DNA from: a virus
Taxonomy: Duplodnaviria > Caudoviricetes
Length of the DNA: 36,989 bases
Strand: one strand, 5' to 3'
IMG/VR virus record: IMGVR_UViG_3300033475_000096
Coordinates: 1 to 36,989 of that record
The notes beneath the pieces are model-generated. The model searched no databases, had not been told where the DNA came from, and was given only the letters and a program-made list of their open reading frames with translations. A program made the translations under genes and the position numbers. Below, piece by piece: positions 12,310-18,423 of this stretch; positions within the stretch are counted from its first letter, which is position 1, and each line of letters begins with the position of its first letter.

Positions 12310-12366
12310 TTATTATACTTGTGGCATAAATATTGTTTAATTAAAACCCATATAAATTTTATAGCT

Positions 12367-12882
12367 ATGAAAAAGTTATTTTTTATTGCTCTGTTTTTTG
12401 TCTCCTGTTTTTCCTTTGCTCAGGACAATGCCATTGACTACCCAATGAATCACGAGACAATGAAGGCAGACTTCACCGCGTCAGATTCTTTACCTTTTAA
12501 CAAAGCAGAGCTTTACAGTAAGGCAATAGAATGGATTTCTACTAATTTTAAAAACGCTTCCGACGTAATCGAATATCAGGATAAGGATGCGGGAAAGATC
12601 ATAGTAAAAGGGACTTACCAGGTTTATTCCATGGGTGCAAGTGCCGGATTTTTCCATTTTAAATTAACGTTTAAAATAAAAGACAATTATTATAAATGCC
12701 ATATTACAGACCTAAGGCACGAAGACGTTAAAAACCCTAGTATAGGAGCTTTTGAAAAAGACAAGCCGGGGTACCCTTGGACTAAAGGCCAATGGAATAA
12801 AATGAGACAACAGGCCATTGCAGATGCAAATTCGACACTGGGAAGCATTGGCAAAGCAATGCACGCAAGTGACGAAGATTAA
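12367..12882 (+). CDS. Secreted DUF4468-like protein (moron)
   Basis: Sec signal MKKLFFIALFFVSCFSFAQ. The segment KAELYSKAIEW...VIEYQDKDAGKIIVKG...KIKDNYYK matches the DUF4468 pattern. Confidence 0.7.
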   Translation: MKKLFFIALFFVSCFSFAQDNAIDYPMNHETMKADFTASDSLPFNKAELYSKAIEWISTNFKNASDVIEYQDKDAGKIIVKGTYQVYSMGASAGFFHFKLTFKIKDNYYKCHITDLRHEDVKNPSIGAFEKDKPGYPWTKGQWNKMRQQAIADANSTLGSIGKAMHASDED

Positions 12883-12884
12883 AA

Positions 12885-12916
12885 TTTGGTCATTAAAATA
12901 TTTTTTCGCATCTTTG
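12885..12916 (+). promoter_or_regulatory. Candidate Bacteroidota primary-sigma promoter for the leader RNA and ORF 13055
   Basis: TTTG (12885-12888)-N20-CATCTTTG (12909-12916), one mismatch to TTTG-N19-21-TAnnTTTG. Confidence 0.45.
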
Positions 12917-12919
12917 ATA

Positions 12920-13065
12920 TGCGAGATTCTGGACGAATAGTCCAATTAAAATTTATCATTTAAAATATGACCATGCGAGTGGAGGTGAAAGTCCTCTAGC
13001 CTTCTCGGTTCGTCCGGAGTCTCGCACCACGCATGGGCGTTTACTATTGTATATATGCGAGACTT
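12920..13065 (+). ncRNA. Structured leader RNA with alternative folds
   Basis: 18-bp helix 12920-12937/13009-13026 with two G-U pairs. Competing helices 12971-12977/13030-13036 and 13017-13026/13056-13065. GAGG-TGAAAGT-CCTC hairpin. Confidence 0.65.
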
Positions 13066-13348
13066 ACAAGAAGCAAACCCAACCTTGCCAGGCGAGAGGG
13101 TTTCATTACAAAACGAGGGCAAAGCCAACTTTGTACACGAAAACAAAGGAACGCTTACCCAAAACATTTACACCTATAGCGGCCTTCGCCGAAAGGAAGT
13201 AAAAAAGCTTATAGAAAAAGAAGTCCGTAACCTTCCTTCCTATGACCAACTTTACGAGATCATAGAAGAAATAATTGAAAAGAAATCACCCCAAATGATC
13301 TGGCAAGAAAAATTTATTCGCCGTCAAAAAATAGTAAAAGGAAAATAA
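13055..13348 (+). CDS. Small protein sharing the repressor C-terminal motif (candidate antirepressor/repressor mimic)
   Basis: NEGKANFVHENKGTLTQNI (aa 20-38) followed by a helical segment; has its own terminator. Confidence 0.7.
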   Translation: MRDLQEANPTLPGERVSLQNEGKANFVHENKGTLTQNIYTYSGLRRKEVKKLIEKEVRNLPSYDQLYEIIEEIIEKKSPQMIWQEKFIRRQKIVKGK

Positions 13349-13381
13349 ACAATAAAGCCCTGCAAAGGGCTTTATTGTTTA
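13346..13381. terminator. Bidirectional terminator between the convergent ORF 13055 and integrase
   Basis: Perfect 16-bp inverted repeat TAAACAATAAAGCCCT-gcaa-AGGGCTTTATTGTTTA. Confidence 0.85.
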
Positions 13382-14635
13382 GAACGTTGGAAAGCTAGAC
13401 AAATCTTCATCTTCGGCATAACATCCCAAATCAGAAAGATAAACGTCTGTTATCTTAATATCTTCGTGTCTCTTCTGCCTTTGTACAAGCTTTATATCTT
13501 TAGTAGCTTTATACAAAGCCGCACAGCCTGAGTGAGCAAAGCCGTACATATCATAGTTATCGTAAGTAAGCTTTAAGTGAGCTAGTATTTTTTTAAGCCT
13601 TACATAAAAGTACTTATCATTTACCGGGGCCTCGCCTGGCGAACCGTCAAGGCTAAATAAATAATAACCATGCGGAAAGTGGCGCAGTCTGTTTTCTTCA
13701 ATAACATCCTCCAAACCGGGAGCAATTTTTATATAGTCTCCATGGTCATTTTTAGCCAAATCGGGAGGTATGTAAATTGTTTTTTCTTTTATATGTTCAA
13801 CCTTCAGTAATCTAAGCTCTGTCCAGGGCCTAAAGAAGCCATAGTAAACGAAAGATATAAAAGTCAACAGTTGTTTTTCTCCCAGCTTTACACACGCCTC
13901 TTTTATCTTCTCAAGCTGCTCTGGGCTATACTTTGTATGCTTATTTGTCTTCGTTCTTTTGTTCTTTACCTTTACCGGGTTTTCAACAAAGACCTTAGGA
14001 TATCTTTCTATAAAAAAAGTAAAGACGTGTTTTAAATCATTTTTCCTATTATTGTGCGTTTTCTTTGCCAGCCCCTTTTTTATTGTGCCGTCCTTCTCTT
14101 TAAATTTTGCCTCGGTAAGCAGATAATCAGAGAATTCAAAAGCCAGTCCGCTTTCAAAGCCAATAAGTAATATATGTTCTTGGTTCCTTTCCTTCAGGAA
14201 AATAGTTAGATGAGCTTTGAGCGAATTCATAGCGCGGACCTGCGCCTTTACCTGCGTCTTCTCCTTTATCTTTTTAACATACTCTATTGCGTCAAGCAAC
14301 GTAAGCTTAGTAATCTCTAACTTTTTATTTCCCTTGTCCGCTTCTTCTTTTATTCGTTTCTGATATTCTTCAATAGTGCCATCTAATCCAGTTGCCCCGC
14401 TTTCAAGAAGATCATTTATAAACCTAATTGCTTCTTCTGCGGCCCTGTAACGCTTGCGTTTTGAATCAGTATCGTTAATACCCTCAGAAAACTTTTTACG
14501 CTGAAGCTTACCCTTATCAACATTGAAGATATAATAAATAATAAACCAGTAACGGGAAGTGTCGCCGCTATAGTCAACAAGGCGCGCAGGAACGAAAGGG
14601 AATTTTTTATCTTTTATTTCGGAAGGTTGCAACAT
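13379..14635 (-). CDS. int: Tyrosine integrase
   Basis: FFRPWTELRLLK (Arg I), AKN (Lys), YGFAHSG (box II variant) and RHEDIKITDVYL (His, Tyr). Likely start is the ATG at 14635; the frame stays open to 14899 across attP. Confidence 0.9.
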   Translation of the reverse strand: MLQPSEIKDKKFPFVPARLVDYSGDTSRYWFIIYYIFNVDKGKLQRKKFSEGINDTDSKRKRYRAAEEAIRFINDLLESGATGLDGTIEEYQKRIKEEADKGNKKLEITKLTLLDAIEYVKKIKEKTQVKAQVRAMNSLKAHLTIFLKERNQEHILLIGFESGLAFEFSDYLLTEAKFKEKDGTIKKGLAKKTHNNRKNDLKHVFTFFIERYPKVFVENPVKVKNKRTKTNKHTKYSPEQLEKIKEACVKLGEKQLLTFISFVYYGFFRPWTELRLLKVEHIKEKTIYIPPDLAKNDHGDYIKIAPGLEDVIEENRLRHFPHGYYLFSLDGSPGEAPVNDKYFYVRLKKILAHLKLTYDNYDMYGFAHSGCAALYKATKDIKLVQRQKRHEDIKITDVYLSDLGCYAEDEDLSSFPTF

Positions 14636-14667
14636 GGAATCAGAAGCGCGCTTTTTAAGTTTTAAGC

Positions 14668-14702
14668 TTACTGCCCAAAACACCGGGATTACTGCCCAAA
14701 AC
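14668..14702 (+). repeat. Integrase arm-type sites (direct repeat)
   Basis: TTACTGCCCAAAAC at 14668-14681 and 14689-14702 (21-bp period). Confidence 0.7.
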
Positions 14703-14717
14703 GCTTTTGTAAGAGAC

Positions 14718-14753
14718 AAAAACGGCCTAATTTGTTCAATTAAGCCGCTTTTT
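14718..14753 (-). terminator. Terminator downstream of the tRNA-like att core
   Basis: Minus strand CGGCTTAATT-gaaca-AATTAGGCCG followed by TTTTT. G-U pairs form only on the minus strand. Confidence 0.7.
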
Positions 14754-14756
14754 ATT

Positions 14757-14777
14757 GTAGAGGGAGAGGGATTCGAA
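14757..14777 (-). other. attP core resembling a tRNA 3' end (tRNA-Ser-like)
   Basis: Minus strand TTCGAATCCCTCTCCCTCTAC corresponds to a T-loop, T-stem 3' strand and acceptor 3' strand. It lies upstream of int and between arm-type repeats. Confidence 0.75.
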
Positions 14778-14803
14778 TTCCAGTAATGCCCTCTAAAAAG
14801 GTC

Positions 14804-14832
14804 AAAAACCTGCGAAATTTCGCAGGTTTTTT
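14804..14832 (-). terminator. Terminator of the repressor operon (bidirectional form)
   Basis: AAAAACCTGCGAAATTTCGCAGGTTTTT hairpin flanked by A and T runs. Confidence 0.8.
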
Positions 14833-14842
14833 GTTCAAAGGT

Positions 14843-14865
14843 TATTTTGGGCAGTGCCCAAAATA
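14843..14865. repeat. Integrase arm-type sites (inverted pair)
   Basis: TATTTTGGGCA-g-TGCCCAAAATA, with the same TGCCCAAAA core as at 14668 and 14689. Confidence 0.7.
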
Positions 14866-14883
14866 TTGAGGTAACAAAATCTG

Positions 14884-15066
14884 TTATTTCTTTTTCCATT
14901 GCTCGTTGATTTCCATCACATTAATTACCAGGTCTAACTTCTTTTCAATTTCCTTAAGCCGGGATAATAAAAGCTCGTCGTCTTTATCGACAATGTTTTG
15001 ATAAATGGTACCGTAATTTTCATTTACAAAATTTTGGTTTCCAGAGTTGATTACATTCGGGTTCAT
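14884..15066 (-). CDS. Small protein downstream of the repressor sharing its C-terminal motif
   Basis: NSGNQNFVNENYGTIYQNI (aa 7-25) plus a short coiled coil LLSRLKEIEKKLDLVI. Confidence 0.7.
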   Translation of the reverse strand: MNPNVINSGNQNFVNENYGTIYQNIVDKDDELLLSRLKEIEKKLDLVINVMEINEQWKKK

Positions 15067-15116
15067 TGATTAATACTAGCGTTAAGTAAAAAATACATTT
15101 TGAACCCGCCCTTACG

Positions 15117-15485
15117 TCATTTTTTGCCCATTAGTTCTATTACCAAGGCGCGACAGTCCGCAAGGTCTTTGTAAGCTTGATTAAGTAATTGCCTGCATTC
15201 AGAATCGGACGTAGCAATATTTTGTGTACTATTTTCCGCGCTTTTGCCTATATAATTCATATTGCCCTCATTTACCATACTTAACGCTTCTTCTTCTTCC
15301 TTAAAAAATAAAGAAACAGGCACATTAAGTGCCCTTGCAATTTTTTCAAGCTTATCAACACGAAGAGTTTGGTTTTTCATTGCATCAATAAGACCGCCCT
15401 GAGTCATATCTAAATGATCTTCAGCCAAAACCTTAAGTGACATTTTTTTAATCTTTAATAGGCTTTTTATAATGCTGTAATTCAA
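15117..15485 (-). CDS. CI-like XRE-family repressor without an S24 peptidase domain
   Basis: HTH segment (MSLKVLAE...MTQGGL...VDKLEKIARALNVPVSLFF), then an N-rich linker and a C-terminal helix; divergent from the Cro-like gene. Confidence 0.85.
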   Translation of the reverse strand: MNYSIIKSLLKIKKMSLKVLAEDHLDMTQGGLIDAMKNQTLRVDKLEKIARALNVPVSLFFKEEEEALSMVNEGNMNYIGKSAENSTQNIATSDSECRQLLNQAYKDLADCRALVIELMGKK

Positions 15486-15510
15486 TTTGTTATAAGTTTT
15501 TATTAATAAT

Positions 15511-15622
15511 TAGGATACTTTTTTATTAAGAAATTTTTTATTTATAAAGAAATAGGTTAATCTTGTATTAAGATATTTCTTAATACAATAAGAAATATCT
15601 TAATCGACTAAGAAATATAATA
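15511..15622. promoter_or_regulatory. Operator array of the lysis/lysogeny switch
   Basis: TAAGA-N4-TCTTA perfect at 15569 and 15589, degenerate at 15527, 15546 and 15609 (about 20-bp spacing). 11-bp-arm palindrome at 15563-15588. Confidence 0.75.
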
Positions 15623-15639
15623 ACGAATTAATAAAAATC

Positions 15640-15945
15640 ATGCCAAAAACCCATAAAAAATTAAGTAGGTACCGATTAAATGAATTATTGAATTCAATTC
15701 CGCAGGGAGAATATAAGACTAAAAGGGCCGAATTGCTTAAAAGGCTTGACATTACCGCCCCAACATTAGGAGACTATAGAAAAGGAGTTCGGGACATACC
15801 AGGCGAAAAGCTTAAAATCATTGCCGACTTCTTCCAGGTCGATATTGAAGACCTTTATAATACCTCAAATACAACTATTGAGGTATCACTGAAAGCCCGC
15901 ACGCGTGAACAGAAATTTTTAAAAAGGCAAAAAATCCGCAAGTAA
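15640..15945 (+). CDS. Cro-like XRE HTH regulator
   Basis: LDITAPTLGDYRKGVRDIPGEKLKIIADFFQVDIEDLY; first gene of the early operon. Confidence 0.85.
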   Translation: MPKTHKKLSRYRLNELLNSIPQGEYKTKRAELLKRLDITAPTLGDYRKGVRDIPGEKLKIIADFFQVDIEDLYNTSNTTIEVSLKARTREQKFLKRQKIRK

Positions 15946-15946
15946 T

Positions 15947-16222
15947 ATGTATACGATAATAGTAGAAAACGGCGGGTCGGCTTGCATGCCTTTTAAATCC
16001 TACAGAGAAGCGGAAATTATGTTTGTCGCTAACTGCGTAGGCCTATCAATTGCTGAAGACGAATTTTCAAACGTCTTCCTTAAAGATTCCAACGGCAATG
16101 TATTGAAGAAAAGGCTTAATGTCTTAATGAAGCCACAAATCAACTACGAAGCACTGATAAAAGCACAGTCAGAACAAAGAGCCTATGCTTACACTAAAAG
16201 AAATACGGAAGACCTTAATTAG
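15947..16222 (+). CDS. Hypothetical early protein
   Basis: Tightly packed ORF in the early operon. Confidence 0.7.
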   Translation: MYTIIVENGGSACMPFKSYREAEIMFVANCVGLSIAEDEFSNVFLKDSNGNVLKKRLNVLMKPQINYEALIKAQSEQRAYAYTKRNTEDLN

Positions 16223-16484
16223 GTTTTCCAACCATAGACACTGGTTGTTTCAGCATCACAAACAGTTTGCTACTCCCGCAAAGGAAGCAAGTGTAGCAAA
16301 GCTTAAAAAGTATCTTGAATTCTATAAAAGGTCTGATTTGCGCGGACATTGCCAGTTAATATTAAGCCTTGAAAGTGATTTGTTATTACTTCTTCCTTCA
16401 GATAAAAGTAAGTATTACAATACTTGGAAGTCACAAATAACAAAGCTTATAGAGTTTTCAAAAGAGTATATCAATAAACCTTAA
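16185..16484 (+). CDS. Hypothetical early protein
   Basis: ORF in the early operon, 38-nt overlap with the previous ORF. Confidence 0.65.
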   Translation: MLTLKEIRKTLIRFSNHRHWLFQHHKQFATPAKEASVAKLKKYLEFYKRSDLRGHCQLILSLESDLLLLLPSDKSKYYNTWKSQITKLIEFSKEYINKP

Positions 16485-17680: not shown

Positions 17681-17953
17681 ATGAAAAATGTTCTAATTAC
17701 CACAGCACACAGAGGCGTATTTTTTGCACAAGTTGACGAGAAAAAAGACCTTACCCAAAGAACCCTTACAGATCTTAAGAACTGCCGCATGGCCATTTAT
17801 TGGGGCACAACAAAAGGAGTAATGCAACTTGCCAACGATGGCCCAAATAATAATACTAGAGTAGGCGCGCCAGCAGATGTTGATGTAATGCACGACGTGA
17901 CAGCCGTATTTAACGTAACAGACCAAGCCGCAGAAAAATGGTTGACCGTCTAA
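17681..17953 (+). CDS. DUF6948-like protein
   Basis: VLITTAHRGVFF...LKNCRMAIYW...LANDGP pattern; followed by a Gly-X repeat gene. Confidence 0.6.
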   Translation: MKNVLITTAHRGVFFAQVDEKKDLTQRTLTDLKNCRMAIYWGTTKGVMQLANDGPNNNTRVGAPADVDVMHDVTAVFNVTDQAAEKWLTV

Positions 17954-18423
17954 TAACAATAAACGAGGTTATTCATAACGGAGCCTGTTATGATGGAGTC
18001 ATGGACTTTTATAAAGAAAATTTCTATGGCAAAACCGCGGTTCCCGTCTCTGAGATATTAGAGGCAGGGGCCGACCCCTCCCGGCTTAACCTAGACGGCA
18101 ACGGCTACGGCAACGGCTACGGCAACGGCAACGGCTACGGCTACGGCAACGGCTACGGCGACGGCAACGGCGACGGCTACGGCGACGGCAACGGCAACGG
18201 CTACGGCAACGGCTACGGCAACGGCTACGGCGACGGCTACGGCGACGGCAACGGCAACGGCTACGGCAACGGCTACGGCAACGGCTACGGCAACGGCTAC
18301 GGCAACGGCTACGGCAACGGCTACGGCTACGGCGACGGCGACGGCGACGGCTATGGCGACGGCTACGGCGACGGCTATGGCGACGGCGACGGCTACGGCT
18401 ACGGCGGTATGCAAGAAGATTAA
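17938..18423 (+). CDS. Gly-X (X = N/Y/D) repeat protein
   Basis: 53-aa N-terminal domain containing GACYDG, followed by 51 Gly-X dipeptides. Confidence 0.8.
   Translation: MVDRLITINEVIHNGACYDGVMDFYKENFYGKTAVPVSEILEAGADPSRLNLDGNGYGNGYGNGNGYGYGNGYGDGNGDGYGDGNGNGYGNGYGNGYGDGYGDGNGNGYGNGYGNGYGNGYGNGYGNGYGYGDGDGDGYGDGYGDGYGDGDGYGYGGMQED
18097..18402 (+). repeat. Hexamer tandem repeat GGC[A/T/G]AC x51
   Basis: Read directly; only two units end in TAT instead of NAC. Confidence 0.95.

Follow-up and report, generated by a model that had tools for sequence, protein, structure and literature searches.

The induction of prophages whose repressor does not cleave itself is an open problem, and it is raised by the immunity region of a tailed virus (Duplodnaviria; Caudoviricetes) held as IMG/VR virus record IMGVR_UViG_3300033475_000096. 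The window analysed here comprises an entire virus record, 36,989 bases long. According to the available part of a 2026 preprint, repressor-domain-only CI-like proteins number 429 in gut Bacteroidota prophages, against 197 complete ones, and their activators are described there as unidentified (10.64898/2026.06.25.734096). In the window, an XRE-family repressor and two small proteins without a helix-turn-helix (HTH), encoded by open reading frames (ORFs) A and B, share a motif of 19 amino acids (aa) rich in asparagine and glycine (N/G), in which an earlier note on this DNA had seen a candidate homotypic, possibly amyloid-like, lysis-lysogeny switch. The reading preferred here, judged from sequence to have an even prospect of being correct, is that of SinI-like mimicry through a beta-type assembly motif, in which ORF B would be a co-expressed modulator and ORF A an RNA-gated antirepressor. 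The proteins and motif copies concerned are the following.

13055..13348, plus strand: ORF A, 97 aa, HTH-less, with a predicted helical region after the motif; candidate RNA-gated antirepressor
13112..13168, plus strand: motif copy of ORF A, residues 20-38
14884..15066, minus strand: ORF B, 60 aa, an N-terminal motif and a conserved helix; candidate co-expressed modulator
14992..15048, minus strand: motif copy of ORF B, residues 7-25
15117..15485, minus strand: XRE-family repressor, 122 aa, with HTH (1-60), N/G linker (67-89) and long C-terminal helix (90-120); PHROG 3 repressor, E 1e-6
15216..15272, minus strand: motif copy of the repressor, residues 72-90

The three 19-mers were located where the earlier note had placed them, beginning at ORF residues 20, 7 and 72 and translated as quoted, and the identities it had given were correct (A-B 12/19, A-repressor 8/19, B-repressor 7/19). 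When the whole proteins were compared pairwise, the best ungapped 19-aa BLOSUM62 window was the motif, with scores of 63 (A-B), 43 (A-repressor) and 39 (B-repressor). In the same order, shuffling the whole proteins 5000 times reached these scores 0, 1 and 8 times, and shuffling within the motif 100,000 times reached them 0, 0 and 14 times, which is so rarely that composition alone fails to explain the likeness. A six-frame scan of the whole window returned the three copies as mutually top matches (39-63), the next best scoring 24-29. Profile comparisons among the motif proteins gave E values of 4e-6 to 6e-5, with hhalign against the repressor alignment yielding 4e-6 for ORF A and 6e-5 for ORF B; as looked for first in a SinI-type mimic, both are HTH-less and homologous to the C-terminal region of the repressor. 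Similarity between ORF A and the repressor reaches about 5 residues further upstream of the motif, and two N-x-G units stand 10 residues apart in the motif of ORFs A and B. Between the motifs of ORFs A and B, 13, 16 and 8 of 19 positions are identical at codon positions 1, 2 and 3, respectively, and different codons are used at 5 of the 12 shared residues; because third positions have diverged and codons differ, it is the peptide that is conserved, and a recent DNA copy is not indicated. The exact degenerate DNA pattern of the motif had 0 matches in viral contigs. An HTH is present only in the repressor among the three motif proteins, as had been noted. The short helix said to follow the motif in all three was borne out in part: one is present in the repressor model, at 31 residues (90-120) too long to be called short, and in ORFs A and B it is suggested by sequence pattern, the Atlas models being of low confidence.

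That the repressor has no S24 domain was confirmed by family scans and by modelling, its 122 aa ending in a C-terminal half made up of linker and helix. Matches to Pfam HTH_3/HTH_26 were weak and under the cut-off. The AlphaFold2 model comprised the HTH, the linker 67-89 at a predicted local distance difference test (pLDDT) of <50, and the helix 90-120; in Foldseek the closest folds to it, with no match at E <= 0.001, belonged to XRE DNA-binding domains, SinR among them. The HTH weakly resembles that of CapH-type regulators, which are cleaved by a partner protease. The motif was also found to be kept in homologous repressors, a point on which the earlier proposal depended: N72, E73, G74, N77 and Q88 are invariant in 3/3 close repressors (those of the window, of a sister phage designated L001, and protein P0002), one of which carries a 2-residue insertion in the motif.

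The wider repressor family was searched among 1.84 billion representatives, and the best 150 of 324 matches were used, from which 144 HTH proteins were parsed. Within this set an N/G-rich linker and short tail were present in 44/144. Among 79 distinct linkers, in which proline makes up about 1%, the pattern G-x-x-N-x-hydrophobic occurred in 31, compared with 11 expected (0/500 shuffles), a RHIM-like pattern was unenriched (12 against 11.9 expected), and a fixed 10-residue glycine spacing was not a family feature (22 observed, 20.8 expected). The recurring pattern indicates that the linker is ordered in sequence, resembling beta strands joined by glycine turns. Strands joined in this way would fold only on assembly. 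A homologue with a doubled motif (P0047) exists, and its monomer model has the same parts and likewise no beta strands. Close relatives of the repressor were found in 1/351 genomes scanned; the repressor, the ORF B homologue and the ORF A leader had no match in 50,697 GenBank phage records apart from one chance match of 29 nucleotides (nt). A second tight subfamily (loci L132-L157), combining an HTH with a coiled coil and a conserved Y-Y-N-V-N-I-W linker, was observed in many Bacteroidia genomes, with no matching partner within 1.5 kb.

ORF B follows the repressor on the same strand after a gap of 51 nt, which is consistent with its proposed role as a co-transcribed modulator. One syntenic phage was found, the sister phage L001 (record G946, 36,486 bases, with terminal repeats), in which the repressor, the integrase and the twin palindromes recur, together with an ORF B homologue in the equivalent place; integrase scans returned this phage only, and the ORF B scan none. 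The two ORF B homologues recovered are 49% and 52% identical. In the three ORF B proteins (3/3), N1, G3, N6, G13, I15 and Q17 of the motif are invariant and its remaining residues vary, and 4 of the 6 invariant residues are among the 6 common to all three window copies (P 0.046). Relative to L001, 14/19 third codon positions of the ORF B motif differ and 6/8 shared residues have changed synonymously; the same synonymous bias extends through the helix after the motif, and in three phages the reading frame opens with an ATG of its own at an equivalent position. These comparisons support the view that the ORF B motif is kept by protein-level selection. The third ORF B homologue (P0155) and the third repressor (P0002) are each recorded from 2 contigs (longest 1823), and we infer that they are neighbours in one locus. 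No usable match for ORF B was found in the Atlas, and a sequence search of the PDB gave nothing below E 0.068. The NCBIfam family NF033604 (CJH_07325 family, 66 aa) matched P0153-P0155, the ORF B family, below cut-off (E 0.0007-0.018) and may share the motif-plus-helix build of ORF B; it had no match in the 4 plus 14 genomes scanned.

ORF A is placed on the strand opposite ORF B and the repressor, 1.8 kb away, and is bounded by elements of its own, as follows.

12885..12916, plus strand: promoter-like site of Bacteroidota type (TTTG, 20 nt, CATCTTTG), just ahead of the ORF A leader
12919..13064, plus strand: structured leader of ORF A, with a seqA-like arm (12920-12937), a seqB-like arm (13009-13026) and a seqC-like copy (13056-13064) over the start codon
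13346..13381, strand not assigned: perfect 16-bp inverted repeat, likely a bidirectional terminator between ORF A and the integrase

The promoter-like site was recognised by the Bacteroidota-type consensus; because this pattern matched twice in the window and the reversed pattern three times in the 36-kb sister phage, a similar chance level, the site is informative only in that it stands 3 nt ahead of seqA. The seqA- and seqB-like arms are 89% complementary over 18 nt, and the seqB-like arm is also complementary to the 9 bases over the ORF A start codon (13056-13064), with duplex energies of -33.6 kcal/mol (seqA:seqB) and -17.0 kcal/mol (seqB:seqC). The leader, which contains an upstream ORF of 8 codons (12973-12999), folded at -53.5 kcal/mol (z -3.55; 1/200 shuffles as good), and the start codon is predicted to be paired under either fold. 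Among 8802 ATG ORFs at 208 loci the seqA/seqB/seqC layout was seen at 4, namely ORF A and three short ORFs that are chance-like, and it was absent from 2946 ORFs of wide regions and from 252 ORFs of the sister phage. As an exact pattern the leader occurred in 0/301 genomes, with 1 unrelated match elsewhere, and 0 times in viral contigs, in a search whose first gap, being a base too short, would have missed the window itself. No Rfam family was matched at gathering score, and no c4 match was obtained at E <= 1. ORF A itself had no homologue in the protein index and no Pfam family, and its best Atlas feature score was 0.77, a lead only. The leader is possibly an uncatalogued Bacteroidota counterpart of the c4/CI antisense RNAs, for which no second example was found. 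Separate control of ORF A as an antirepressor, as had been suggested in the earlier note, would fit its promoter-like site, antisense-type leader and terminator.

The combination of a promoter, a leader whose middle arm is complementary to upstream and downstream copies, and a small upstream ORF is also described, in the available portions of the sources, for P4, whose CI RNA base-pairs with the flanking seqA and seqC (PMC4825925), and for P1, which controls an antirepressor via C4 antisense RNA in the separate immunity region immI (C4-icd-ant; PMC8201110). Unlike those systems as described there, the window gave no Rfam c4 match, ORF A has no Ant, Icd or ORF6N homology, the host is of Bacteroidota type, the controlled gene would be a repressor mimic, and processing and antisense action of the leader RNA are putative.

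Under the preferred mimicry mechanism, the motif, which in the repressor comes after the DNA-binding head and before the C-terminal helix, would be a like-with-like assembly segment, disordered alone and zipping into intermolecular beta strands beside the coiled coil to give small closed oligomers. Headless copies would enter the repressor oligomers and leave fewer DNA-binding heads, and repression would be lowered or reshaped. ORF B, produced with the repressor, would set the amount of active repressor, and the seqA/seqB/seqC-like leader would keep ORF A off in the lysogen. Release of ORF A early after infection or on a signal would poison the repressor oligomers and free the cro promoter, taking the place of RecA-driven cleavage. 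The shared and selected motif, the anatomy of a cleavage-less repressor, the gene layout and the RNA leader are directly supported.

Precedents for mimicry are provided by SinI/SinR of Bacillus subtilis, where SinI shares residues with SinR (PMC3163267, in the excerpt available), and by the phage pair AimX/AimC (10.1101/2025.11.23.689978, likewise in part). As at this locus, both consist of an XRE repressor without a protease domain and a small HTH-less protein that has the oligomerisation region in common with it or covers that region, and would break oligomers. Unlike SinI/SinR, whose shared part is described as a helical hook, the shared part here is an N/G segment, predicted to be disordered and bearing a beta-turn pattern, followed by a coiled coil; unlike both pairs, there are two mimics in one phage. 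AimX is not described as an AimC copy in the available text of its report, and the SinI Pfam family had no match in the window proteins or in 41 repressors.

The recurrence of this arrangement was assessed in a census of 175 loci, representing 135 distinct repressors, of which 104 were short-tailed and 48 had at least 5 N/G in 20 residues; two L001 duplicates and one locus of an unpublished genome were dropped. An ORF within 3 kb counted as a partner if its score with the linker of the repressor at its locus reached the 99th percentile of cross-locus scores or more. Six of the 48 N/G-rich loci had such a partner (the window, L034, L068, L093, L104 and L114), the motifs differed between lineages, and the repressor scored best with its own partner in L034, L093, L104, L114 and the window. 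The co-occurrence of repressor and motif-matched HTH-less ORFs, proposed earlier as a check, recurs at 5 other Bacteroidota-type loci, but most linker repressors are partnerless, from which it follows that the linker belongs mainly to the repressor as such and the partners are optional.

Several results of this census weigh against the mimicry reading. The partner cut was not reached at 42/48 loci, L001 among them, many of these loci being only 1-10 kb long, and 8/14 regions widened to 10-40 kb, which were hand-chosen and included known positives, were without a partner. The L001 linker scored 28 with its own ORF B and 49 with ORF A of the window, and the P0002 linker scored 39 with its presumed partner and 57 and 51 with ORFs A and B of the window; motif-partner matching is at lineage level, not at phage level. 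Among the partners themselves, that of L104 has no start codon before the motif, that of L114 could be read only from a TTG or through a frameshift within eight consecutive T, those of L034 and L093 look like decayed copies, their alignment to the repressor extending back into a degenerate HTH, and that of L068 runs off the contig and may be a complete second repressor. On the same side, ORF A, the third motif copy, has no homologue and is missing from the sister phage, and is therefore dispensable for this phage type; the leader does not match Rfam c4, and its layout was not seen before the 29 ORF6N genes or the 1 ANT gene examined in Bacteroidota genomes; no control was found for a constitutive inhibitor adjoining its own repressor; and the binding and expression of ORFs A and B, and any effect of theirs on repression, are predictions.

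The partners seem to arise as repressor copies minus the head, and ORF B would be the case in which, to judge by its sequence conservation, such a headless copy is clearly maintained as a gene. The interpretation in the earlier note is retained in part; it had overlooked how common the linker is in partnerless repressors and the likeness of several partners elsewhere to decayed repressor duplicates. The L092 locus contains a relic that begins in the HTH end and has no linker. In three loci (L104 1860-2557, L093 386-1479 and L092 451-1404) a repressor is followed by cargo genes and then by an orphan repressor C-terminus, as if the repressor 3' end plus cargo had been swapped by recombination; the cargo genes of L104 and L093 look alike. 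At L114 1910-1990 an upstream ATG is out of frame by one base across the eight-T run, inside an 8-bp inverted repeat, for which phase variation or an assembly error is possible.

In an amyloid-type switch, the motif would stack into an open cross-beta polymer and ORF A (or B) would nucleate inactive, self-propagating repressor aggregates, giving all-or-none and possibly heritable induction. A motif of 20-25 aa with N/G/Q bias was found in linked genes, co-varying at lineage level only, and its length, N/G/Q/I/V bias, proline content of about 1% and glycine-turn pattern match general features of BASS motifs in the available text of 10.1101/2020.01.06.895854. Motifs common to linked genes are likewise the design of Bab/Agp signalling (10.1101/2024.11.07.622273, in part), and as in BASS1-10 Bell/NLR and BASS11 Bab/Agp of these two sources the N/G-biased motif varies in step between lineages. 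The two N-x-G units of ORFs A and B and the doubled motif of P0047 point the same way. Small proteins acting on a phage repressor are also known from RstC of RS1/CTX and Qtip of VP882, which inactivate repressors by aggregation, the repressor RstR being also without a catalytic domain; no motif shared between antirepressor and repressor is described in the available text of that report (10.1101/2019.12.16.877910), and neither protein is homologous to ORFs A or B. Against an amyloid, the G-hydrophobic-Q-hydrophobic-G core of RHIM/BASS3 is absent from the three copies and unenriched in the 79 linkers, and no Pfam amyloid-motif family was among those shown for the window proteins or the 41 repressors. 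Two BASS-defining features were looked for and were lacking, in a comparison made from text descriptions. Unlike in BASS as described in the sources, a repressor is paired with small helical proteins in place of an NLR/TPR sensor with a death effector, and the motif, instead of ending an NLR or death effector, lies inside the protein next to a coiled coil. An oligomerising sensor that could nucleate the motif is absent: no NLR/TPR sensor with a death-effector domain was present among 44 window proteins, and PADLOC had no match for ORFs A and B. Monomer models, that of the doubled motif included, are without beta structure, which is a weak test. An amyloid-type switch is considered unlikely. 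Slightly more doubtful still is its fuller form, a prion-like lysogeny switch in which a cleavage-less repressor would carry a beta-arch amyloid motif, antisense-RNA-gated ORF A would seed an inactive polymer, ORF B would set the nucleation barrier, and related prophages sharing the motif would be cross-inducible.

The motif could instead be bound or cut by a protease or adaptor of host or phage origin, and the small proteins would then act as decoys that compete for this factor and do not bind the repressor. The predicted disorder of the linker is usual for recognition sites, a repressor without S24 needs an outside trigger, and the weak CapH likeness of the HTH recalls the cleavage by a partner protease mentioned above; no metalloprotease family was present among the 44 window proteins, however, and the motif varies by lineage in step with its partner, which self-recognition fits better than a fixed host factor, so that a decoy is improbable. 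Also to be weighed is that the small ORFs are left-over repressor 3' ends, produced by duplication or by recombination of an end plus cargo, in which the motif is functionless. Remnants at L104, L092, L093 and L034 do stand behind one or two cargo genes or adjoin the repressor, and align with its whole C-terminal half, but in three phages ORF B starts at an ATG of its own, at the same place, and it shows a conserved helix and a bias towards synonymous change; ORF A, 1.8 kb off and on the other strand, is served by a leader and a terminator dedicated to it, and the copies have largely diverged at third positions. Relics are thus quite improbable. The same low probability is attached to ORF A being aimed outward, at the repressors of related resident prophages (cross-induction, or anti-immunity during superinfection), and not mainly at its own. 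ORF A scores 57 and 49 with the P0002 and L001 linkers and 55 with its own, it shares with the linkers of relatives an N-K-G no longer present in the repressor of its own phage, it forms an accessory cassette, and trans-acting antirepressors are known (PMC3121763, in the part available). The score differences are small, however, and such action is compatible with the mimicry reading, not exclusive of it.

In a literature search from which most subscription journals lay outside, no phage repressor regulated through a shared N/G motif was found, nothing joined amyloid or prion with phage repressor and lysogeny, and nothing concerned a truncated dominant-negative repressor as a phage antirepressor; PMC12261475 contained no mention of HTH, phage or Bacteroid terms. 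The locus adds two candidate soluble mimics in one genome, one of them putatively RNA-gated, and makes visible how such proteins may originate, through the decay of repressor copies. It offers small parts that can be assayed cheaply (the motif, two mimics, an RNA leader and putative operators). Should the predicted binding be true, it would represent a beta-type counterpart of SinI mimicry and give a sequence rule to predict antirepressors and prophage cross-talk; should fibrils be formed, amyloid signalling would be seen to serve gene regulation and not cell death.

The genes of the window, whose order is permuted, include those for portal, capsid-like, tail, amidase and replication proteins and for the integrase. 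The immunity/integration module runs from ORF A (plus strand) through the terminator, the integrase (minus strand), an attP-like stretch, ORF B and the XRE repressor (both minus strand) and two palindromes to a divergent cro (plus strand), and its other features are these.

13379..14635, minus strand: tyrosine integrase, likely start 14635, mechanical ORF to 14899; PHROG 1, E 3e-21
14756..14780, minus strand: stretch resembling a tRNA 3' end, likely attP core; a near-identical stretch lies at the same place in L001
15569..15602, strand not assigned: two TAAG-N6-CTTA palindromes between repressor and cro, putative operators
15640..15945, plus strand: Cro-like HTH gene, divergent from the repressor and first of the early lytic operon; Pfam HTH_26 and HTH_3

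The integrase is 58% identical to that of the sister phage from the start at 14635 on. The attP-like stretch, which is preceded by a hairpin at 14804-14832, was judged tRNA-like by the T-loop consensus. L001 has two TAAG-N6-CTTA sites at the equivalent place, one of them identical to that of the window. Of the Bacteroidetes SOS box motifs taken from the available part of PMC8565304, CTAA-N5-TTAG was absent from the whole window and GGA-N5-TCC from 12800-16300. From the occurrence of repressor relatives and the promoter-like site, we infer a Bacteroidota host for the window phage.

A TAAG-N7-CTTA palindrome resembling the repressor operators is located at 14656-14670, 21 nt ahead of the likely integrase start. 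A 161-aa protein with a long G-N/D-G-Y repeat tract is encoded at 17938-18423, directly behind a DUF6948 gene. The slot between the tail genes and the integrase is a variable cargo site, occupied in the window by a DUF4468 protein (12319-12882) and ORF A, and in L001 (4115-5475) by three unrelated genes.

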